The position numbers were made by a program, and so were the translations under genes. From the IMG/VR virus record IMGVR_UViG_2698536505_000016: a stretch of DNA of 8,503 nt; one strand, given 5' to 3'. The notes beneath the pieces were generated by a model that searched no databases, was not told where the DNA came from, and was given only the letters and a program-made list of their open reading frames with translations. Each line of letters opens with the position of its first letter. The stretch's first letter is position 1. Shown here in pieces: positions 1 through 8,503 of the stretch. Source of the DNA: a virus (lineage: Monodnaviria > Loebvirae > Hofneiviricota > Faserviricetes > Tubulavirales > Inoviridae).

Positions 1-3
1 ATT

Positions 4-36
4 GGTGCGCATAATGTACGACTCGTTATGTTGAAA
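4..36 (+). other. dif-like XerC/XerD recombination site (candidate attP arm)
   Basis: GGTGCGCATAATGTA at 4-18 matches the XerC arm and start of the central region of E. coli dif (GGTGCGCATAATGTATATTATGTTAAAT, from memory); TTATGTTGAAA at 26-36 resembles the XerD arm TTATGTTAAAT (9 of 11), displaced by about 5 extra central nucleotides. Confidence 0.55.
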
Positions 37-75
37 AGGCCGCTGCGAAAATCGAATCCCGCAGCGGCCTCTTTA
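37..75 (-). terminator. Hairpin with 11-bp GC-rich stem; probable intrinsic terminator of the minus-strand operon, possibly bidirectional
   Basis: AGGCCGCTGCG (37-47) pairs with CGCAGCGGCCT (60-70), 12-nt loop; on the minus strand the stem is followed by TTTTC, and it lies just 3' of the ORF ending at 101. Confidence 0.5.
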
Positions 76-100
76 GCATAACGTCATTGTGCGAACCAAT

Positions 101-580
101 TTATATAGAAATGAAAAACTCCTCTTCATTTCTTCTTTTATAATTGTCATCCCATATGAGTTTTATTCGGTATTTAGTTTTACTTCCAAAGCTTATTCCC
201 GCTAAAATTTCAATTCCATGTTGCGGGTGTAATACCTCATATGGAAATTTATCTTCTACATCATGCATTGAAAGATATTCATTTCCATCGTTATCAGGGA
301 AATGAATCTCTATATTTTTAGCCTCAACTCTCCCTCTATTAAATATCTTGAGCCTATAGTTGTTTTTGGCTATTTTTACGAGGCGAGCACCAAGCTCAGC
401 TTTCATCTCATTAATTGCTGACTTTGTTTCTTTTTCCAGAAGCAACTTACGTAACCTGTCTTGCTCATCCTTTATAACCTTTTGTTCTCTATCGCTTTTT
501 CTCGATTTCATTTCTGACGATATGATAGTGTAAATCGATACTACAAGCGCAGCTAAAGCGATGGCATCACTTGTTGTCAT
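101..580 (-). CDS. Hypothetical membrane-anchored protein, 159 aa: N-terminal TM helix, charged coiled-coil-like segment, C-terminal domain of unknown function
   Basis: ATG at 580-578 overlaps the upstream stop as TAATG; AAGGA Shine-Dalgarno 7 nt upstream; hydrophobic N-terminus AIALAALVVSIYTIISS followed by a K/E/R-rich segment; AT-rich coding sequence by eye. Confidence 0.65.
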   Translation of the reverse strand: MTTSDAIALAALVVSIYTIISSEMKSRKSDREQKVIKDEQDRLRKLLLEKETKSAINEMKAELGARLVKIAKNNYRLKIFNRGRVEAKNIEIHFPDNDGNEYLSMHDVEDKFPYEVLHPQHGIEILAGISFGSKTKYRIKLIWDDNYKRRNEEEFFISI

Positions 581-855
581 TATTTGATCCTTATATTCTT
601 ACTTCCCTTAAATGCCTTTTTGAGCATGTCGTTAAACTGTTTTTGAATGTCTTTTGTTAACTCTTCTTTTATTTCATCTACATGAGCGTCAATACTCACC
701 CCGTTTTCTTGGATTAACTCATCATTAGTAAATTCTTTCCCGCAGCCTACACATCTAACGACTTCAGACTCTTCCTCGTGTTCCATCTCTGTATTTCCGC
801 ACACAGGACATAGCAGGGTAATGTTTCTATTGTATTTCTCAGGATTCAGTTTCAT
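580..855 (-). CDS. Small zinc-ribbon protein, 91 aa, with a CPVCG...CVGCG motif resembling YgiT/MqsA-type zinc fingers
   Basis: ATG at 855-853 with GAGAGGA Shine-Dalgarno 5 nt upstream; two CxxC pairs 19 residues apart; stop overlaps the start of the downstream gene. Confidence 0.65.
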   Translation of the reverse strand: MKLNPEKYNRNITLLCPVCGNTEMEHEEESEVVRCVGCGKEFTNDELIQENGVSIDAHVDEIKEELTKDIQKQFNDMLKKAFKGSKNIRIK

Positions 856-883
856 ATGTTTCCTCTCTTCTACGTTTTATTGA

Positions 884-1306
884 TTACCAGTAATATGAAT
901 TTCTTCTGTGCCACCAATAAAGCAGGCCATATCCGACAATAAGAATCCCGAAGAACATCAGAGACATTCCCCAGCCAGTTCCATACCACGAAACCATATC
1001 ATCGAAAACCAGCCCACCCGTTTCACGAACTCCGGCAGCTTCCTTAAGAATTGGCTTGAATACCGGAATCAGAAGGGCGATCGCCAGTGGAGCACCCCAG
1101 CGAATAAGGCCAGTTTCCATTTTGATCCCGAAAAAGATCCCCGCACCGACAACAAGCAGCCAGACTATCAGGCCAGGCGCAGTTTCCAGTGCTGTTTGCC
1201 ATTCAACATCGAAAGTTTTCATTAGCCAGGCAACAACTGCCAGACAGAAAGCAAATACGCCTACAACAACCAGTTCAACGCCGCTTGTTTCGTTATTTCT
1301 ACTCAT
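884..1306 (-). CDS. Hypothetical integral membrane protein, about 140 aa, four predicted TM helices
   Basis: Internal ATG at 1306-1304 with AAGGA about 8 nt upstream; four hydrophobic stretches; the longer reading from 1453 would run through a hairpin and overlap the upstream gene. Confidence 0.55.
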   Translation of the reverse strand: MSRNNETSGVELVVVGVFAFCLAVVAWLMKTFDVEWQTALETAPGLIVWLLVVGAGIFFGIKMETGLIRWGAPLAIALLIPVFKPILKEAAGVRETGGLVFDDMVSWYGTGWGMSLMFFGILIVGYGLLYWWHRRNSYYW

Positions 1307-1339
1307 CCTTTTGATCCTTTGTTGCTGTTCAAAATCCGC

Positions 1340-1377
1340 ACAATAAAGAACGTGCAGTGTAGGTAATACTGCACGTT
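1340..1377 (-). terminator. Hairpin plus T-rich tract between the regulator gene and the membrane-protein gene; terminator or attenuator
   Basis: Perfect 8-bp inverted repeat CGTGCAGT (1351-1358) / ACTGCACG (1368-1375) with 9-nt loop; followed on the minus strand by TTCTTTATTG. Confidence 0.4.
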
Positions 1378-1394
1378 TGTACCATTCGTGGTAC

Positions 1395-1577
1395 TTAATC
1401 CTTTTGTTTGGCAGACATGAGATCTTCTGCTGCATCTTTAGAGTAGTTATCAATCAGATAACCTAAAATCTCTGTCCATGTAATTGTTTTTCCTAGTTTT
1501 ACACTGGCATTTATAGCCAGTCGTTCTAGTTTCATTTTTCTTTCTTCCGTCACGTTATAAGTCGTGCGCTTTGCCAT
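1395..1577 (-). CDS. Putative small DNA-binding regulator, 60 aa, ribbon-helix-helix-like (candidate phage repressor)
   Basis: ATG at 1577; N-terminal short beta-strand-like segment (RTTYNVT) followed by two predicted helices, the pattern of Arc/MetJ/CopG regulators; transcribed divergently from gII. Confidence 0.45.
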   Translation of the reverse strand: MAKRTTYNVTEERKMKLERLAINASVKLGKTITWTEILGYLIDNYSKDAAEDLMSAKQKD

Positions 1578-1746
1578 TTTTTACGCTCGTTCAATGCAAT
1601 ATTTGAAGTGAGTATACATGCTCGTGAACTCATACCATCCAAGCCTCTTGAACTCACTAGCTCACTGGTGTAATGTTAAAACACTAATGAACTACTGAAC
1701 TCATGTGTTAGTAAGTCGTCATTTTTGCAATTTTGAGGATTTATTC
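1578..1746. promoter_or_regulatory. Divergent control region between the regulator gene and gII; contains direct repeats (candidate operators or iterons) and candidate promoters
   Basis: Three 13-nt direct repeats, CTCGTGAACTCAT (1621-1633), CTCTTGAACTCAC (1645-1657), CTACTGAACTCAT (1692-1704), plus partial TGAACTAC (1688-1695); plus-strand TTGAAC (1648-1653), 17-nt spacer, TAATGT (1671-1676); minus-strand TATACT -10-like hexamer (complement of 1611-1616). Confidence 0.4.
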
Positions 1747-2799
1747 GTGATCGATTGGCTTACCGGGATTTTCCCTTGCACACACAAACCGCTTCCGGCG
1801 GGGAGTGTTGTCAGCGTTGATGCTGACGGTGCAATTGAGTGGGAAACCGTTAAGCGACTGACTGTTCGCGGTTCGCATGAAGCAACGATGAAAGTACGAT
1901 CGATAGGATCTAATGGCGAAGGTAAAGCGACACATTTGTACATTGATGGTAATCCTTCCAAGTTTCTGCAGGGGCATTCTGTTGTTGGGTCGGATGATAT
2001 ACAAGGGCTCATGTTGACGGTCTATGCCAGGATTTTATCCTTATTGAATATTCCTCATGATTTAGCGTCTTATAAAGCCGTTATGGCAGGTCAGTATAAA
2101 ATTTCACGTGTTGACATTAATTACATGTATTCATTATCTACGCTGGAAAATGTCAGATCATGGCTTTATGCCGCCGAATTTAAAGCTAAAACACGCCATG
2201 GTCGCGCATGTGGGAAAGGCGGTACAGTTTATTTAGGTAAAAACTCCCGTCGATGGAGTCTGAAATTTTATTCAAAATATGATGAACACGTTTCTGGTAA
2301 AAAAGGGCACCAGATAGCCGAAGAGTTTGTACGAGCCGGGTTACTGGACTGGACGAAAGATAAATTACGTATTGAATTAACATTAAGAACAACTGAGCTT
2401 ATTGATTTAAATTTAACGCTTGGCGCTAACTGGAATATGAAAACACCACGTCAATTATTCTCTGAATATGTAGGGAGAATAGAAATGAATCAGAATGCTA
2501 TTTTAAGTGATGAAAAAATAACGAAACTGCCAAGAAAAATACAGTCAACTTATTTACTTTGGAAACAAGGGGCTAACATGAAAGAAATGTTACCTCATAA
2601 CACTTTTTATCGCCATAGAAGAGAATTGCTTTCGTTCGGTATCGATATTAATTTCTATTGTGATTCACCAGACTCTAATAACGTTGTTCCGCTAATAAGA
2701 ACGCTGGAAGCCAAGCCAGCGGAAATCCCCTTATGGATTTATGAGAAAGGTTTTATTTTCGATTACAACCGTATTTCGCACGCCAGTAGCTGGCATTAA
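1747..2799 (+). CDS. gII: Replication initiation protein pII (rolling-circle nickase), about 350 aa
   Basis: GTG start at 1747 preceded by GAGGA (1735-1739); product then begins MIDWLTGIFP, like M13 pII (MIDMLVLRLPF); internal motifs GNPSKFLQGHSVVG and NNVVPL resemble M13 pII. The ORF track start at 1705 is also GTG, with no Shine-Dalgarno. Confidence 0.85.
   Translation: MIDWLTGIFPCTHKPLPAGSVVSVDADGAIEWETVKRLTVRGSHEATMKVRSIGSNGEGKATHLYIDGNPSKFLQGHSVVGSDDIQGLMLTVYARILSLLNIPHDLASYKAVMAGQYKISRVDINYMYSLSTLENVRSWLYAAEFKAKTRHGRACGKGGTVYLGKNSRRWSLKFYSKYDEHVSGKKGHQIAEEFVRAGLLDWTKDKLRIELTLRTTELIDLNLTLGANWNMKTPRQLFSEYVGRIEMNQNAILSDEKITKLPRKIQSTYLLWKQGANMKEMLPHNTFYRHRRELLSFGIDINFYCDSPDSNNVVPLIRTLEAKPAEIPLWIYEKGFIFDYNRISHASSWH
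2485..2799 (+). CDS. gX: Candidate gene X product: in-frame internal start within gII giving its C-terminal 104 aa
   Basis: ATG at 2485 preceded by AGGGAG (2472-2477) at 7-nt spacing; Ff phages make pX from an internal start in gII of similar size (111 aa in M13). Confidence 0.4.
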   Translation: MNQNAILSDEKITKLPRKIQSTYLLWKQGANMKEMLPHNTFYRHRRELLSFGIDINFYCDSPDSNNVVPLIRTLEAKPAEIPLWIYEKGFIFDYNRISHASSWH

Positions 2800-2810
2800 A
2801 GGAAAGTAAT

Positions 2811-3128
2811 ATGTCTAATTATGGTCTTTTCGTTAAGGGTAAAATGTTGGGAGCCCGCCAACGTAATAAAGTTAATGGTCAGGGCTATTATAATGAAATT
2901 GGTATTGGCCTTGAAATACCTGATGGTTTTGGTGGTACAAAGCAGGATCAAATTATTATTCGAGTTTCTCAGGCTCTCGTTAACGCAGGTCTAATGAACC
3001 AGGCGAATGCTTTCATTGGGAAATTAGTTCAAATTCCTGTCTATGTCCGTGCGTGGTCAATGGAGGGTAGGGAAGGTGTAACTTATAATGTTGCTTCCGA
3101 TGGTGGCATCGCAGAGATCAAAGGTTAA
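2811..3128 (+). CDS. Gene-V-position protein, 105 aa; putative ssDNA-binding protein by synteny, divergent from Ff gVp
   Basis: ATG at 2811 with GGAAAG Shine-Dalgarno directly after the gII stop; sits between gII and gVII; little obvious similarity to M13 gVp by eye. Confidence 0.5.
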   Translation: MSNYGLFVKGKMLGARQRNKVNGQGYYNEIGIGLEIPDGFGGTKQDQIIIRVSQALVNAGLMNQANAFIGKLVQIPVYVRAWSMEGREGVTYNVASDGGIAEIKG

Positions 3129-3130
3129 AT

Positions 3131-3217
3131 ATGGACGATGTTATTCAAATTTTGATAGCGTCTGGCATCGTTATTTCTTTTGGCCTCGGCGCGATTACTG
3201 CGGGGGTCTTTCGTTAA
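3131..3217 (+). CDS. gVII: Minor coat protein pVII, 28 aa, hydrophobic
   Basis: ATG at 3131 with AAGG upstream; product MDDVIQILIASGIVISFGLGAITAGVFR resembles M13 pVII in size and C-terminus; stop overlaps the next start as TAATG. Confidence 0.55.
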   Translation: MDDVIQILIASGIVISFGLGAITAGVFR

Positions 3218-3312
3218 TGTATATCGTTTATTTCTTCGGGGCTTATACCTTTGGTTTTGCCCTTTTCTATGCGGTCGGTTCATTTAAATCATTTTCTGAC
3301 CGATTAATGTAA
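3217..3312 (+). CDS. gIX: Minor coat protein pIX, 31 aa, hydrophobic
   Basis: ATG at 3217 overlapping the gVII stop; product MYIVYFFGAYTFGFALFYAVGSFKSFSDRLM; size and position match Ff pIX. Confidence 0.55.
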   Translation: MYIVYFFGAYTFGFALFYAVGSFKSFSDRLM

Positions 3313-3331
3313 ACTTAATGGAGTTATTCCT

Positions 3332-3574
3332 ATGAAAATTCTGTCTACTGTTAAATATAAAATTGCTCTGGCTTCAACTGCGCTTTTTATTTCTGCAAGT
3401 TCTTTTGCGGCTGAAGGCGCTACAGGTGGTACTGATTATGCAGGTCAGGCAATGGATGCTTTGTTGACTCAGGCAAATGATCTCATTGGTAAAGTATGGC
3501 CTGTTGTTGTTGCTGTGGTTGGCGCTGGGCTTGCCATTCGTATTTTCAAAAAATTCTCTTCAAAAGCGGTTTGA
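3332..3574 (+). CDS. gVIII: Major coat protein pVIII precursor, 80 aa, signal peptide plus about 54-aa mature protein
   Basis: GGAG Shine-Dalgarno 8 nt upstream; likely cleavage at SFA/AEG; mature C-terminus ...[13 protein letters not shown] closely matches IKe/M13 coat protein (...LFKKF(S/T)SKA) from memory. Confidence 0.9.
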
Positions 3575-3582
3575 ATTTCACT

Positions 3583-3608
3583 CAGGGGCACTCGTTGCCC
3601 CTTTATTA
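3583..3608 (+). terminator. Rho-independent terminator after gVIII
   Basis: 7-bp stem AGGGGCA / TGCCCCT with 5-nt loop, followed by TTTATT; same position as the central terminator of Ff phages. Confidence 0.7.
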
Positions 3609-3620
3609 AAGCGGGTTACT

Positions 3621-4931
3621 ATGAGAAGGAAAATATTAATTCTTTCCGCTGTCCTCATTTCTCCTTTTTCACATGCTGAGTCATGGGAAAGCATTACTAA
3701 ATCCACTTATCAAAGTTCTGCCTACGCTGAAAGTAAGCAAATAACCAATCAGGATGGCTCTAAGATAACGGTTTACTATATTGATGCTGCTATGCAGGCC
3801 TCCGCTTGTCAGGGTGCTAAATCCAGTGCTCAGAGTGTATTTACTCGGATTAAACCAACTTATGAGGGTATCTGGCCTGATTCTGAATTCCGTCTTGTTT
3901 TTACTGGCGATTGTACTTACAGCGATTCACCAGGGCAGAAGGATAAATATTGGTCTTTAACGGCTTATATTGTTGGTAATATTCAGCGTTCTGTTCCTGA
4001 TGAAAAACCTACTGACCCGACACCAGAAGAAATTTGTGAAGCGAAGCCGCCAGAAGAAGGTGTATTTAATAATGTTGATTCATATGATGGTGGTCGCTAT
4101 ATCTACTATAACGGCTGTGAATATGAGGCTACTGGTGTCATTGTTTGTCAGGGTGATGGTACTGTTTGCGCTGCAACATGGAAGCCTACAGGTGCTGTAG
4201 CTGACCCCTCTGATAAACCCTCACCCCCCCAAAATGGTGGTGGTGAGTCCGGCGGTGGTGAGTCCAGCGGTGGTGAGTCCGGTGGTGGTGAGTCCGGTGG
4301 TGGTGAGTCCGGTGGTGGTGAGTCCGGCGGTGGTGAGTCCGGTGGTGGTGAGTCCGGCGGTGGTGAGTCCGGTGGCGGTAGTTCTGGCGGTGGCTCTAGT
4401 GGTTCCAGTCTTTCTAAAGGTGATATTCAGTCTGCGATCGAAGGTGCTTCACCCAAAATAGCCAGCGATATTCATGATAAATTAACGGAGAAAGACACTT
4501 CATCAGATGATAAAAAAAATGCCGATGAACAAACCAGGAATAATATAAATCGTCTTGACGATTCCATTAACAATCTTACGCGGGGGGCTGGCCGTTTTGC
4601 TGACCCTTCAGGTGGTGATTCTCGTTATGGAAAGGGCGACTCTGAATTAGATGGCGCTTCTACTTTAGCTGATTCTGAATTGGGAATTGAAAAGGATTCT
4701 CACGGTGCTTTATGGGAAGCATTTTTAAATAAAGGTGCTATGCTGCCTAATTTACCCAATGGTAACGGCTGCTCTGATTTTATTATTTTTCCCGGAGAGA
4801 TTTATCAGATTGATATTGGTTGCGATAAATTACTGACTATTAAAGATGTTCTTTCATGGGTTTTTTATTGCCTTACGTTCTGGTATGTCTTTACTTCTTT
4901 AACTTCATTGCTTCGCAAAGGGGGTGAGTGA
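3621..4931 (+). CDS. gIII: Adsorption/minor coat protein pIII, 436 aa: signal peptide, Cys-containing N-terminal domains, (GGGES)n linker, C-terminal membrane anchor
   Basis: ATG at 3621 after the terminator (track start 3477 overlaps gVIII); C-terminus ...[36 protein letters not shown] resembles the M13 pIII anchor; glycine-rich linker typical of pIII. Confidence 0.85.
4236..4400 (+). repeat. Tandem 15-bp repeat array inside gIII, about 9 near-perfect and 2 degenerate units, encoding (GGGES)n
   Basis: GG(T/C)GGTGGTGAGTCC repeated head-to-tail from 4236 to 4370, in frame with gIII, then two degenerate units to 4400. Confidence 0.9.
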
Positions 4932-5272
4932 TGCCTTTATTATTAGGTATTCCTGCATTGTTGCGTTTTCTTATTGGTCTTGTTCCTTTGTTTATTGGCT
5001 ATGTGGCGAGTTTTTTAGCTCGACTTGCTACCAGAACAGGATTAATCGCCTTTGCATTGGTCGCATTAATTACAACAACTGTTACGCTTTTAATGCAGTA
5101 CCTTGCTGAGGTCATGTATAACGGTTTACCTGCTGATTTCTCCCATTTAATGGCGTCTGTATTGCCTGACCATTTTCAGGCGTGTGTTAACGTTATTATG
5201 GTTACTCGTATCAGTGTTTTTGTTTTCGATTTAAAACAAAAATTTCTTGATTATGCAAACAGGGTGATTTAA
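4931..5272 (+). CDS. gVI: Minor coat protein pVI, 113 aa
   Basis: ATG at 4931 overlaps the gIII stop (TGATG); [14 protein letters not shown]... and ...FVFDLKQKF... resemble M13 pVI (MPVLLGIPLLLRFL..., ...FIFDVKQKI...). Confidence 0.9.
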   Translation: MPLLLGIPALLRFLIGLVPLFIGYVASFLARLATRTGLIAFALVALITTTVTLLMQYLAEVMYNGLPADFSHLMASVLPDHFQACVNVIMVTRISVFVFDLKQKFLDYANRVI

Positions 5273-6367
5273 ATGGCGGTTTATGTAGTAACAGGCAAAT
5301 TAGGCTCAGGCAAGACACTTGTTAGTGTTTCCAGAATACAGGAAAGACTTGCTAAGGGTTGTCCTGTTGCCACTAATCTTGATCTTAAATTGCATAATAT
5401 GCCTATGGTTGGGCGTTATGCGAAAAAAACGCGCGTTATTCGCATTCCTGACAAGCCTTCATTAAATGATTTACTTGCTATTGGTATTGGGAATACATCT
5501 TACGATGAATCCCGTAATGGCCTCCTTGTACTTGATGAATGTGGTACTTGGTTTAATTCCCGCTCATGGGGTGATAAAGACAGACAACCTGTTATTGACT
5601 GGTTTTTACATGCCAGAAAATTAGGCTGGGATATTATATTTTTGATTCAGGATATTTCGATAATGGATAAGCAAGCTCGTCTGGCGCTTGCTGAGCATGT
5701 TGTTTATTGTCGCCGTTCAGATAAATTAAACATTCCTTTTGTTGGCTCCATTATGAATTTGGTTTCAGGGGCGAGATTTTCTTTACCAAAGGTACACTTT
5801 GGCATTGTCAAATATGGTGATAATGTTAATTCAATCACTGTTGATAAATGGATATATACAGGAAAATCTCTTTATTCTGCTTACAATACCAAACAAGCGT
5901 TCACAGATAATTATCCTCATGGCGCATTTTCGCTTTTGCCACCATTTATCACGCACGGTCAATTTTCTGTTCACAGAGGATTTAGTTATTATATGCGCCT
6001 CACTAAAATTTATTTTCGCAAATCGAACCGTCTTATATTAATGCTTTCTTTTTTGGCGCTGGGGCTTGCGTTTGGTTTCTGGCTCCAGTCTGGAAAGAAT
6101 GTTGATGAAATCTCAGCTATTAAATCTGCTTATGCTGAACAGGCGAGGGCGGTAACGCCTGATTCGTCCAGTGACTTACCCCGACTTTCTATTAATTCTT
6201 TTTCACAACTTGGCTTTGACGTTTCCGTTACGTTTGTTGATGCAAAAGGCATGAAATATCAGTATTTTGATTTGATTAAAGATGGTTATTCCGTTGATAT
6301 TAAAGATGCCTGTCGTGTTGTTATTAGAAAAGGCCGTTATTTACAGACTGTTACCTGTCAGGAGTAA
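5273..6367 (+). CDS. gI: Assembly ATPase pI (Zot-like), 364 aa, Walker A GKLGSGKT
   Basis: Start abuts the gVI stop; N-terminal about 160 aa is highly similar to M13 pI (MAVYFVTGKLGSGKTLVSV..., LLVLDECGTWFN..., AEHVVYCRR...). Confidence 0.95.
   Translation: MAVYVVTGKLGSGKTLVSVSRIQERLAKGCPVATNLDLKLHNMPMVGRYAKKTRVIRIPDKPSLNDLLAIGIGNTSYDESRNGLLVLDECGTWFNSRSWGDKDRQPVIDWFLHARKLGWDIIFLIQDISIMDKQARLALAEHVVYCRRSDKLNIPFVGSIMNLVSGARFSLPKVHFGIVKYGDNVNSITVDKWIYTGKSLYSAYNTKQAFTDNYPHGAFSLLPPFITHGQFSVHRGFSYYMRLTKIYFRKSNRLILMLSFLALGLAFGFWLQSGKNVDEISAIKSAYAEQARAVTPDSSSDLPRLSINSFSQLGFDVSVTFVDAKGMKYQYFDLIKDGYSVDIKDACRVVIRKGRYLQTVTCQE
5993..6367 (+). CDS. gXI: Candidate pXI: in-frame internal start at Met241 of pI
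   Basis: ATG at 5993 is Met241 of pI, the same position as the pXI start in M13, immediately before the predicted TM segment (MRLTKIYFRK...). Confidence 0.45.
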   Translation: MRLTKIYFRKSNRLILMLSFLALGLAFGFWLQSGKNVDEISAIKSAYAEQARAVTPDSSSDLPRLSINSFSQLGFDVSVTFVDAKGMKYQYFDLIKDGYSVDIKDACRVVIRKGRYLQTVTCQE

Positions 6368-6374
6368 TATTATT

Positions 6375-7640
6375 ATGCGCTCTGTTATTGTTGCTTTTTT
6401 ATTTGCCTGTTCATTCTGCGTTTCTGCTGAAACTGTTAATTTAAATAATTCATCTGTTCGCTCATTTGTTCAGTGGTATTCTTCAAAAACTGGCAAGCCT
6501 GTTATTGTTAATCCTGATATTAAAGGAAACGTAACCGTATTTAATGCTGATGTTAATCCAACAAATATTGATGATTTCTTTAAGTCTGTTCTGAATGCTA
6601 ACGGTTTTGTCATGCTTTCTGGCAATCCTGCGGTAGTCTCTTTGCCGTCTAAATTACCTTCACAGATGGTTTCGGATTCCGATGATTCTGATAACCAGTC
6701 TTATGATACTTTTCCTTCTGAGCCATCTTACCAGCCAGTACCTGTGGCGCTTACGGTCAGAAATTTTAAGCTGACAAAAGTTAGATCGTCCGATGTTCAG
6801 CAACTGATTAAAATTTATCTTGATTCTAATGGTGGTGGTAATGTCGTGGATTATCCAGGCAATAACTCGCTGATTGTTTCTGCGCCTGACGAGCTGCTGC
6901 CGGTTCTGTCCGATTTTATCAATTCTGTGGATGTTGCCCGCGATCAGGTTCTCATTCAGTCGCTGATGTTTGAAACCAGCTTGTCTGATGGCGTTGATTT
7001 ATCGTTTGCGGCAGGTTCTGCATCCGGTCATAAGGTTGCGGGGGGCTTTAATACTTCTGCACTGGGTAGCGCTCTTTCTACGGCGGGCGGTTCTTTTGGT
7101 ATTTTTGATGGTAACGTGTTGGCGCTGTCTCTGCGTGCTGTCCAGAGTAATTCACGCTCTAAGGTGATTTCAACGCCGCGTATTCTTACTCAGTCTGGTC
7201 AGACTGGTTACATTTCCGTAGGTAAGAATGTGCCGTTTATCACCGGAAAGGTAACGGGCGAATCTGCCGGGGTAAATAATCCGTTTCAGACTATCGAGCG
7301 TCATGATGTTGGCGTTTCTCTCAAGGTAACGCCTGTTGTCATGGGTAACGGGCAACTAGTTCTGACTATCGACACTCGCGCTGATTCAATCAGCAATGAT
7401 GATCAGGCATCCGATATTATTACTAATCAGCGCCAGATTCAGACGACAGTCCAGATTAAGGATGGTCAGACGTTGTTATTGGGAGGGCTTATCGATTCAT
7501 CGTTAAGCAATGCCGAGCGTTCAGTTCCAGTTATAAGTAAAATTCCTCTTATAGGCTGGATTTTCAGTAGCAAGGCAGACAGCAATGAACAGCGTATTAT
7601 GTATATTTTGCTTACAGCACATATCATTCGTCCACTTTGA
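6375..7640 (+). CDS. gIV: Outer-membrane secretin pIV precursor, 421 aa
   Basis: ATG at 6375 with GGAG at 6361-6364 (track start 6282 overlaps gI); signal peptide MRSVIVAFLFACSFCVSA; long conserved stretches match M13 pIV (e.g. PRILTLSGQ.G.ISVG.NVPFITG.VTGESA.VNNPFQTIER, TLLLGGL, KIPLIG). Confidence 0.95.
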   Translation: MRSVIVAFLFACSFCVSAETVNLNNSSVRSFVQWYSSKTGKPVIVNPDIKGNVTVFNADVNPTNIDDFFKSVLNANGFVMLSGNPAVVSLPSKLPSQMVSDSDDSDNQSYDTFPSEPSYQPVPVALTVRNFKLTKVRSSDVQQLIKIYLDSNGGGNVVDYPGNNSLIVSAPDELLPVLSDFINSVDVARDQVLIQSLMFETSLSDGVDLSFAAGSASGHKVAGGFNTSALGSALSTAGGSFGIFDGNVLALSLRAVQSNSRSKVISTPRILTQSGQTGYISVGKNVPFITGKVTGESAGVNNPFQTIERHDVGVSLKVTPVVMGNGQLVLTIDTRADSISNDDQASDIITNQRQIQTTVQIKDGQTLLLGGLIDSSLSNAERSVPVISKIPLIGWIFSSKADSNEQRIMYILLTAHIIRPL

Positions 7641-7682
7641 TGGATAGCGGGTAGGTGCGTGAGCCCTGCTCGCTATCCATCA
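7638..7682 (+). other. Long hairpin starting at the gIV stop codon; candidate packaging signal or origin-associated structure
   Basis: Perfect 12-bp inverted repeat TGATGGATAGCG (7638-7649) / CGCTATCCATCA (7671-7682), extendable to about 18 bp with two G-T wobbles, 9-nt loop; no T-run follows. Ff packaging signal is a hairpin just after gIV. Confidence 0.45.
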
Positions 7683-7709
7683 AATGGACATTATTGATTG
7701 GGGTAACTA

Positions 7710-8018
7710 ATGGATTCTTATGGGATTTTATCTGCTCTGGCAGAACGAACGATTACAGCGGAAGAAGCAAAAACAATGACACTTGCAGCCAGAAGTTCTT
7801 CGGCTCAGGTAAATGAAGCATCACTTGCTCTGTTACTGATTGATAATACTCTGGATGCGATCAAAGCAGCTGCCAGTGAAGGGAAAGGATACACTTTACT
7901 TCCTTCTTATGAGATTTCTGTAAAAGCCATTGATTTAGCAGAAGAATTTTTAAGGAAACAATGCGGCTATGTTATTGATAACCAGAATGGCGTAAGGACG
8001 GTCTATTGGTTTATATGA
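7710..8018 (+). CDS. Hypothetical protein, 102 aa, predicted mostly helical, no recognised motif
   Basis: ATG at 7710 with a weak G-rich Shine-Dalgarno; lies between gIV and the att region where Ff phages have only non-coding sequence. Confidence 0.5.
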   Translation: MDSYGILSALAERTITAEEAKTMTLAARSSSAQVNEASLALLLIDNTLDAIKAAASEGKGYTLLPSYEISVKAIDLAEEFLRKQCGYVIDNQNGVRTVYWFI

Positions 8019-8135
8019 TAACCCCGGACAATGACAAAACTTGCTTTTGTTAGTGTCAGGGGTTGGCCAAGCCGAACAATTCTGTTTTTTTAGCGTTATT
8101 GCTGATTCGGCGCGGCAGCATTACGAGGAGATAAA

Positions 8136-8369
8136 ATGCAATTTTTCACATCCAGCGATACTGTAATGTTATGTGCGAAGACCTGCGATCGCTGTGGTCG
8201 CCATGCGAAGACGGTGGTAGATGACATTGAGTTCAATGAGTTTCTGTCTGTTAATCACTTAGCTGGATACGGTTCAATTTTTGGTGACAGTAATCGCTTA
8301 AAACTGGATTTATGCCAACATTGCCTGAAAGACGTCCTGGGCCAGTGGATTACGGTCTGTGACCAATGA
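8136..8369 (+). CDS. Hypothetical small cysteine-rich protein, 77 aa, putative zinc-binding
   Basis: Strong GAGGAG Shine-Dalgarno 5 nt upstream of ATG at 8136; CxxC pairs at residues 17/20 and 61/64; followed by the att hairpin. Confidence 0.55.
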   Translation: MQFFTSSDTVMLCAKTCDRCGRHAKTVVDDIEFNEFLSVNHLAGYGSIFGDSNRLKLDLCQHCLKDVLGQWITVCDQ

Positions 8370-8407
8370 CGGCACCGGTAACGCCAGTTCCCGCCATCCT
8401 TACCATT

Positions 8408-8440
8408 GGTGCGCATAATGTACGACTCGTTATGTTGAAA
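8408..8440 (+). other. dif-like XerC/XerD recombination site, second copy
   Basis: Same sequence as 4-36. Confidence 0.55.
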
Positions 8441-8479
8441 AGGCCGCTGCGAAAATCGAATCCCGCAGCGGCCTCTTTA
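8441..8479 (+). terminator. Same hairpin, second copy, downstream of the 8136-8369 ORF; candidate plus-strand terminator
   Basis: Identical stem-loop followed by TCTTT on the plus strand; located about 70 nt after the stop at 8369. Confidence 0.35.
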
Positions 8480-8503
8480 GCATAACGTCATTGTGCGAAC
8501 CAA

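Follow-up and report, generated by a model that had tools for sequence, protein, structure and literature searches.

Duplicated 99-nt ends of a UPΦ-group inovirus contig from Escherichia coli: a CTXΦ-type attP cassette and a probable assembly-level redundancy

The 8,503-nt stretch of DNA analysed here (IMG/VR record IMGVR_UViG_2698536505_000016; the whole stretch is referred to as the window) carries the same 99 nt at both of its ends, which raises the question of what such a repeat represents in a filamentous phage of the family Inoviridae. A free circle, a unit of a tandem array, a single prophage between its left and right attachment sites (attL and attR), and a linear genome with redundant termini were all considered. 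The repeat is a complete phage attachment site (attP) hairpin, an identification that goes beyond the initial annotation of this DNA. For the explanation as a whole, we regard it as likely that the duplication arose at the level of assembly, through redundant writing of a closed junction that is itself real, and that it is neither a biological terminal repeat nor an attL/attR pair.

Self-comparison of the window showed that bases 1-99 are identical to bases 8405-8503, that 99 nt is the longest exact match between prefix and suffix, and that the two starts are spaced 8404 nt apart. This confirmed the exact repeat and the genome of 8404 bp given in the initial annotation. An exact 99-nt repeat within 8.5 kb cannot have arisen by chance, and the identity cannot be extended, as the window stops there. 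Copy 1 (1-99, plus strand) is the complete attP cassette, here called element E, as judged from the exact repeat, the fold, and its conservation. Copy 2 (8405-8503, plus strand) is redundant; it follows the phage right end (...CCATCCTTACC) and forms with it the closed junction, which was reproduced in complete genomes and in an episome. The window was byte-identical to the entire contig CYAI01000069.1 (contig number 69) of the multi-contig draft assembly GCA_001277655.1. Its ends are therefore contig ends and not arbitrary cuts, and the window is a stand-alone small contig of a draft bacterial assembly, not a metagenomic viral genome.

This contig holds one full copy of an inovirus of the published UPΦ group of E. 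coli. It was 99.4-99.6% identical, at 100% coverage, to E. coli prophages such as those of UM146, TUM13936, and 20Y000092, and 98.2% identical, again at 100% coverage, to the prophage of ECONIH2 (CP014667). Prophage and plasmid records served as the comparators for UPΦ, YpfΦ, and CUS-1Φ; a megablast search of a phage collection matched IKe and PEar phages only, over approximately 190 nt within gene IV, and only one IMG/VR contig, from a diverged relative, carried the junction. The inovirus core set was present in canonical order (gII, gV, gVII, gVIII, gIII, gVI, gI, gIV) according to Pfam, PHROG, and gene calls, and no match to a recombinase or integrase family was found among the called open reading frames (ORFs) scanned, which in Pfam comprised all except the 28-aa gVII. 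With near-identical prophages sitting between hipA and dif in E. coli, the earlier description of a filamentous, dif-integrating phage was borne out. The unit length of 8,404 bp is strain-specific because gene III contains a 15-nt repeat that varies in copy number: the sister prophage unit of 20Y000092 is 8,314 bp long, and the 90-bp gap matches six fewer 15-nt repeats in its gene III.

Element E together with base 100 forms a near-palindrome (ATTGG...CCAAT) containing two inverted dif-like sites. The first, attP1 (4-36, plus strand), is built of an XerC arm, a spacer, and an XerD arm. Its XerC arm GGTGCGCATAA (4-14) is identical to that of E. coli dif; its spacer TGTACGACTCG (15-25) measures 11 nt compared with 6 nt in dif and begins with the same four bases (TGTA); its XerD arm TTATGTTGAAA (26-36) has two mismatches to dif. 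Prophage junctions place the crossover within GGTGCGCATAATGTA. The second site, attP2 (71-97, minus strand), consists of the XerC arm GGTTCGCACAA, a 5-nt spacer (TGACG), and the XerD arm TTATGCTAAAG, and the two sites are separated by an apical stem-loop (37-70, plus strand) made up of GGCCGCTGCG, a 12-nt loop, and CGCAGCGGCC. Both spacers, 11 nt and 5 nt, differ from the 6 nt of dif and are unsuitable for duplex Xer recombination. The arms of attP1 and attP2 can pair with each other, on the XerC side through nine Watson-Crick pairs, one G-T pair, and one mismatch, and on the XerD side through eight Watson-Crick pairs, two G-T pairs, and one mismatch. When bases 1-100 of the plus strand were folded in silico as single-stranded DNA (ssDNA), a hairpin of -30.9 kcal/mol was obtained (z = -8.4), and none of 200 shuffles was as good. 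The folded plus strand is predicted to rebuild one XerC-XerD substrate around a bulged centre; gene orientation suggests that this strand is the packaged one. The cassette is a CTXΦ-type attachment site. Its GC-rich apical stem was not flagged as a bidirectional terminator by a scan whose limit is exceeded by the 12-nt loop.

Across 25 loci, the cassette was 97-100% identical in most copies and 92-96% identical in three divergent ones. This conservation held on backbones only approximately 80% alike, including those in Y. pestis, Phytobacter, and Erwinia tracheiphila. At the same loci, 13 unrelated sequence types follow base 99, whereas base 1 is preceded either by a host flank or by a phage right end, of which there are two kinds. 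Because the sequence changes at both edges of the cassette, modules truly meet at base 1 and at base 99/100, which makes these positions branch points of an assembly graph. That the window starts and ends exactly at the repeat boundaries, as the initial annotation had put it, is true by construction; the statement gains content only because the 99-nt block is delimited independently by the hairpin (1-100) and by the block of conservation, the right edge of which lies at base 99-101 in many unrelated contexts. Natural variants of the cassette cluster in the loop (48-59), and one variant, G89A, converts a T-G wobble into a T-A pair.

A separate observation concerns the spread of the cassette. 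Copies in Erwinia tracheiphila (L018, 2728-2824) and Phytobacter (L015, 5027-5125) were 99-100% identical to element E, and the phage DNA adjoining them was barely or only partly alignable to the window. Conservation also reaches the apical stem, a part that should be dispensable for XerCD binding. These features suggest recent horizontal spread or homogenisation of the cassette.

The integrated relatives show where the cassette lies in a prophage. In UM146 and 20Y000092, the full element was found only at the hipA-side (left) end, and the right end was a perfect dif (GGTGCGCATAATGTATATTATGTTAAAT); the two ends shared only approximately 16-18 nt. The attL of UM146, 20Y000092, and EC5502 consisted of the host flank followed by the cassette from base 2-3. 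This layout is the expected product of strand exchange on the XerC side, next to the boundary between GGTGCGCATAA and TGTA. Direct repeats flank many integrative elements, and the repeat of the window contains dif-like sequence, so that an attL/attR pair of a single integrated prophage might be suspected. The restored dif at the right end in UM146 and 20Y000092, with its short overlap with the left end, argues against it; the window contains no host sequence, and a lone prophage gave no separate contig in the simulations described below. We consider this explanation, which the initial annotation had offered as its alternative, to be hardly conceivable. A true terminal redundancy of a linear virion genome, used in packaging or circularisation, is equally improbable: in form the window does resemble a sequence with direct terminal repeats, but it carries the genes of an inovirus, and in arrays and circular records this joint lies internally. 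Inoviruses package circular ssDNA.

In the UM146 record (NC_017632.1), the segment just left of the element (5966-6005) has Ns at precisely those positions that distinguish the hipA-side host flank from the phage right end. The UM146 assembly has merged the attL junction with a phage-to-phage junction, and the strain probably holds an array or a replicative form that is collapsed to one copy in the record. The annotation of UM146 hipA as a pseudogene is due to this merged junction.

Arrays were found directly in complete genomes. EC5502 carries an array of at least five copies and 20Y000092 a clean two-copy array (hipA-E-A-E-A-dif), and all internal joints in both strains have the order right end, full element, left module, which is the closed junction of the window. 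To survey this junction, a 400-nt probe across it was compared with 5,426 complete E. coli genomes. The homotypic closed junction was recovered end to end, at 98-100% identity, in seven complete chromosomes, in keeping with the earlier proposal that the attachment region is contiguous with both gene blocks. Among the 60 records listed, approximately 37 more joined the phage end and the element to a different module, or the reverse, and the remaining ones showed attL only or attR only. Strain F11 (NZ_CP076123.1) provides an example of a mixed arrangement: a single array in which two UPΦ-like copies come first and at least two YpfΦ/CUS-type copies after them, with the element (at 5565, 14151, and 23239) at the joints. 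The UPΦ paper describes only one co-infection by UPΦ and YpfΦ, at separate loci (PMC7307601).

The same junction also occurs in circular records. A 7,938-bp circular Salmonella "plasmid" carries it along with structural proteins identical to those of 20Y000092, matching the junction probe up to the start of its own, different left module; another "plasmid", of 9,565 bp and from E. coli, belongs to the YpfΦ/CUS type. The window could thus be a circle or a tandem unit, as had been proposed, since homotypic arrays and the Salmonella episome share its closed junction. Because array junctions and episome junctions are identical, sequence alone cannot separate the two, and the initial annotation was right in leaving that choice to other data. 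A heterotypic array, which it had not considered, is a viable third configuration that would yield an identical contig.

Several further records bear on the distribution of the element. A large IncFIB/HI1B plasmid of K. pneumoniae (NZ_CP132684.1) carries two or more neighbouring YpfΦ/CUS-type copies joined by the identical 99-nt element (6024-6122); arrays of this type therefore occur on plasmids as well as at chromosomal dif. Approximately 390 conjugative plasmids in PLSDB (IncF-type), such as NZ_CP094340.1 (3005-3071), carry a relic of the element that spans positions ~27-98 at ~93% identity and is missing the attP1 XerC arm. The relic adjoins a gene of the STM4504/CBY_0614 family, a gene name that also lies under matches to some chromosomal UPΦ-like prophages, and it looks like an old integration or a capture of a phage accessory module by plasmids. 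Finally, the contig JARKOR010000214.1, from a metagenome-assembled genome of "Candidatus Nanosynbacter", contains the hipA-side flank and the window phage; the flank is 100% identical to an E. coli chromosome, and the contig thus comes from E. coli and was binned wrongly with a Patescibacteria genome.

To determine why the contig ends at the cassette, de Bruijn unitigs were simulated for several configurations of circle, prophage, and array. A pure circle gave an isolated cycle with an arbitrary start, and a lone prophage became part of the chromosome contig. A homotypic tandem, or a single copy accompanied by a replicative form, gave a unitig of 1..8422 at any k-mer length K (2..8422 with another host flank). 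A host-E-phage-E-module array whose module began with a base other than T gave exactly 1..8503 at K = 99. The simulated start was pinned by the attL branch at base 1, or at base 2 with another host flank. With the host flank of EC5502 or 20Y000092, the merge point was base 3 or 2, and only a flank of the L013 type (TTTAT directly before ATTGG) gave base 1; a start at base 1 set by the boundary of host/phage homology alone was for that reason rejected.

These simulations can be set against a control contig and against the window itself. The control, L014 (PPYF01188766.1, 8,596 nt), is a metagenomic contig of a sister UPΦ phage with a unit of 8,576 bp and a left module unlike that of the window; its closing overlap is 20 nt and starts inside gene I, which is what an unconstrained circular contig looks like. 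The length of the window repeat, 99, is a commonly used k, and the start of the window coincides with base 1 of the cassette. We infer that 99 is the assembler k, the best reading of the repeat length and one that extends the initial annotation, and that the start at base 1 reflects the attL branch, that is, the coexistence of an integrated copy with the closed junction. The source strain most likely carried an integrated copy at dif plus a closed junction, the latter supplied by a homotypic tandem, by a replicative form beside the copy, or by a heterotypic array.

Two particular states of the strain have to be weighed. In a pure episome, only the circular replicative form would exist, dif would be empty, and a cycle assembled at k = 99 would have been printed with a k-length overlap. 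The simulation does yield a 99-nt overlap from such a cycle, circular episomal records of sister phages exist, L014 is a circular contig from the same phage group, and YpfΦ is often exclusively extrachromosomal (PMC4266046). However, an isolated cycle has no defined start, so that the prior for base 1 of the cassette is approximately 1 in 8,404, and L014 indeed starts inside gene I; UPΦ viruses are moreover reported to integrate at dif as tandem repeats, which short-read assemblies collapse (PMC7307601). The pure episome is in our view quite improbable. 

The heterotypic array is a sub-case of the favoured explanation, in which a single copy next to hipA is followed by a different dif-integrating element with an identical cassette. 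The shared 99-mer would then be a vertex with two edges in and two out, and the contig an edge leading back to the same vertex, with no need for a second copy or a circle. This was the only simulated configuration that gave 1..8503 as a raw unitig (K = 99). Heterotypic joints also outnumbered homotypic ones among the matches listed from complete genomes, with F11 and L005 as examples, and modules that share the cassette and begin with a base other than T exist in L003, L006, L015, and L021. On the other hand, the neighbour would have to combine such a first base with the absence of any 99-mer common to the window backbone, whereas many observed neighbours start with T or share backbone, in which case the simulated contig starts late or would break elsewhere. 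A host flank of the L013 type, with T before ATTGG, would be needed as well. On balance we rate this sub-case as rather unlikely.

For the explanation as a whole, namely an assembly-level redundancy across a closed junction that coexisted with an integrated copy, several points weigh in the other direction. The state of the source strain is read only from where the contig starts and ends. A homotypic tandem, or a copy plus replicative form, gave the raw unitig 1..8422, and reaching 8503 takes an additional path extension of 81 nt by the assembler. The value k = 99 is assumed, and its near-equality with the length of the hairpin and conserved block (99-101) is an unexplained coincidence in every scenario. 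As for the fold, the minus strand reached -28.5 kcal/mol compared with -30.9 kcal/mol for the plus strand, a modest gap, and these energies alone do not prove strand specificity. The roughly 10 distinct cassette variants, most of them confined to the loop, are too few for a covariation test, and the Erwinia variant G91A breaks a pair of the hairpin.

A route by which the phage may come to occupy dif can be drawn from the CTXΦ paradigm and the anatomy of the site. By this analogy, the packaged plus strand would fold attP into a hairpin resembling duplex dif, with a bulged 11-nt/5-nt centre, and the host XerCD proteins would bind the folded site. XerC would then exchange one strand pair with chromosomal dif, and replication would resolve the intermediate. 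The whole cassette would end up at the hipA-side end of the prophage, with an intact dif rebuilt at the other end. The rebuilt dif could accept the next phage, of the same or a different type, giving homotypic or heterotypic arrays; repeated integration at a restored dif would thus leave array joints that read right end, cassette, left module, as in the circular form. New phage DNA would come from rolling-circle replication, either of the replicative form or across units that lie side by side.

The mixed arrays raise the possibility of module exchange. An island at approximately 1338-1405 (plus strand) is common to the UPΦ and YpfΦ/CUS-type backbones and contains an invariant palindrome with a 12-bp stem (~1349-1377) and a second hairpin with compensatory changes. 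In the metagenome contig L005 (694-8979), the backbone of the first unit is that of UPΦ, 98% identical to the window, whereas the cassette is followed by a 1.3-kb left module that is 99.5% identical to the YpfΦ/CUS-type phage of F11, and the switch between the two parents lies inside the invariant palindrome. Replication running from one origin to the next across a mixed array would give rise to such a chimera, which nominates the island as a candidate plus-strand origin; homologous recombination within the island is the alternative source of the switch. Replication of this kind across arrays was reportedly established for CTXΦ by Davis and Waldor in 2000. We tentatively propose that UPΦ and YpfΦ/CUS-type phages swap an accessory module bounded by the cassette and the island through rolling-circle replication across heterotypic dif arrays, and that contig ends betray a mixed source array; this proposal is plausible, with the balance somewhat against it. 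If true, its novelty would be confined to the position of the origin and to the fact that the process works between these two enterobacterial lineages.

The remainder of the window is organised as follows. The left, attL-proximal accessory module (101-1306, minus strand) is swappable, relatives carrying unrelated modules in its place, and comprises three ORFs of 159 aa (101-580), 91 aa (580-855, zinc-ribbon-like), and 140 aa (884-1306), all on the minus strand. A 60-aa ORF (1395-1577, minus strand) is conserved in UPΦ variants and may, from its position only, be a regulator. The core genes lie on the plus strand: gene II, the rolling-circle replication initiator (1747-2799; Phage_CRI 4.7e-71, G2P_X_C 2.3e-29); gene V, the ssDNA-binding protein (2811-3128; Putative_G5P 8.3e-51); a gene VII-like minor coat protein (3131-3217; Inovirus_G7P_2); gene VIII, the major coat protein (3332-3574; Phage_coatGP8 3.4e-19); gene III, the attachment protein (3621-4931); a gene VI-like protein (4931-5272; DUF5455); gene I, the Zot-family assembly ATPase (5273-6367; Zot 6.3e-41); and gene IV, the secretin (6375-7640), which at the DNA level is ~80% identical to its counterpart in IKe and PEar phages. 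The right, attR-proximal accessory ORFs (7710-8369, plus strand) encode proteins of 102 aa (7710-8018) and 77 aa (8136-8369). Neither PADLOC nor Pfam pointed convincingly to a function for these accessory ORFs, the sole matches being weak zinc-ribbon-like ones of the 91-aa protein.

The 15-nt (GGGES) tandem repeat of gene III is located at approximately 4236-4385 and consists of about 10 units. Its copy number varies by strain, gene III being 90 nt shorter in 20Y000092 and also shorter in UM146; it sets the genome length and may be mis-sized in short-read assemblies. A 20-nt inverted repeat (7636-7684; 90% complementary, 9-nt gap) lies directly 3' of the gene IV stop codon; it could serve as a terminator or else as a hairpin for packaging or for the minus origin. 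Sigma-70-like promoter matches were depleted across the window, with 6 found compared with 20.9 +/- 4.3 in shuffles.

When an inovirus contig in a draft bacterial assembly ends in direct repeats, this is no proof of a free circular virus, because arrays or an unrelated neighbouring phage at dif give the same picture. For the UPΦ variant in the window, the analysis yields the exact attP and a corrected unit length of 8,404 bp, and it shows that UPΦ and YpfΦ have one and the same 99-nt CTXΦ-type cassette. With this cassette in common, the two lineages can therefore share one array and may trade accessory modules. The phage group, the type of attachment site, and the array habit were already known, so that the additions are modest and current understanding is not overturned; the duplicated ends are an ordinary result of the phage layout at dif combined with assembler output.

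The closest known system is UPΦ itself. Like the window phage, UPΦ shows hipA-side integration at dif, tandem arrays, GGGES variation, YpfΦ-like genes II and V, and an IKe-like gene IV. The UPΦ paper (Shapiro and Putonti 2020), in which ECONIH2 is the case study, reports that the number of GGGES repeats in g3p varies, and that genes II and V are common with YpfΦ and the remainder with IKe/I2-2 (PMC7307601). UPΦ901 is 7,560 bp long compared with 8,404 bp for the window unit, because the latter has extra accessory ORFs, as described for ECONIH2 (PMC7307601). There is no mention of attP, a hairpin, or inverted sites in that paper (PMC7307601), and identification of the cassette for UPΦ is thus an addition to the published account, though an unsurprising one. 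IKe and I2-2 (Lineavirus), which are Ff-like, have related morphogenesis genes in the same order, with the gene IV identity to IKe given above. A functional dif-type attP is, to our knowledge, not expected in these phages. Neither IKe nor I2-2 integrates (PMC7307601).

YpfΦ, from Yersinia pestis, and CUS-1Φ, from E. coli O18:K1:H7, share the attachment site. The 99-nt cassette is 100% identical in Y. pestis NCTC5923, where it stands at a phage-to-phage junction, and both phages resemble the window group in integrating at dif and restoring it at the 3' end, in forming arrays and episomes, and in having a variable attL-proximal accessory module. Inverted XerC/XerD sites have been reported for YpfΦ, and arrays of two to four copies plus episomes, with dif restored at the 3' end, for YpfΦ/CUS-1Φ (PMC4266046). 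Only genes II and V of the type-B phages of Y. pestis and F11 align to the window, at ~80%, with no blastn alignment over the remainder. An assignment of the window to YpfΦ or CUS-1Φ itself was ruled out, as the backbone (~7 kb) does not reach the ~99% identity to them that such an assignment implies. YpfΦ and CUS-1Φ have been classed as CTXΦ-type (PMC4246890).

CTXΦ of Vibrio cholerae integrates as ssDNA through a forked attP(+) hairpin with XerC catalysis only. CTXΦ and the window phage both lack a phage recombinase, regenerate dif on one side, and occur in arrays and as hybrid genomes. They differ in host and in dif sequence, and the arms of the CTXΦ sites are approximately 90 bp apart compared with 34 nt here. 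CTXΦ uses the host secretin EpsD, whereas the window phage encodes its own secretin (gene IV) and has no toxin genes. At the attachment site, the likeness lies in the inverted dif-like arrangement with non-canonical spacers, the central regions measuring 12 bp and 5-7 bp in CTXΦ attP(+) (PMC4246890) and 11 and 5 nt in the window.

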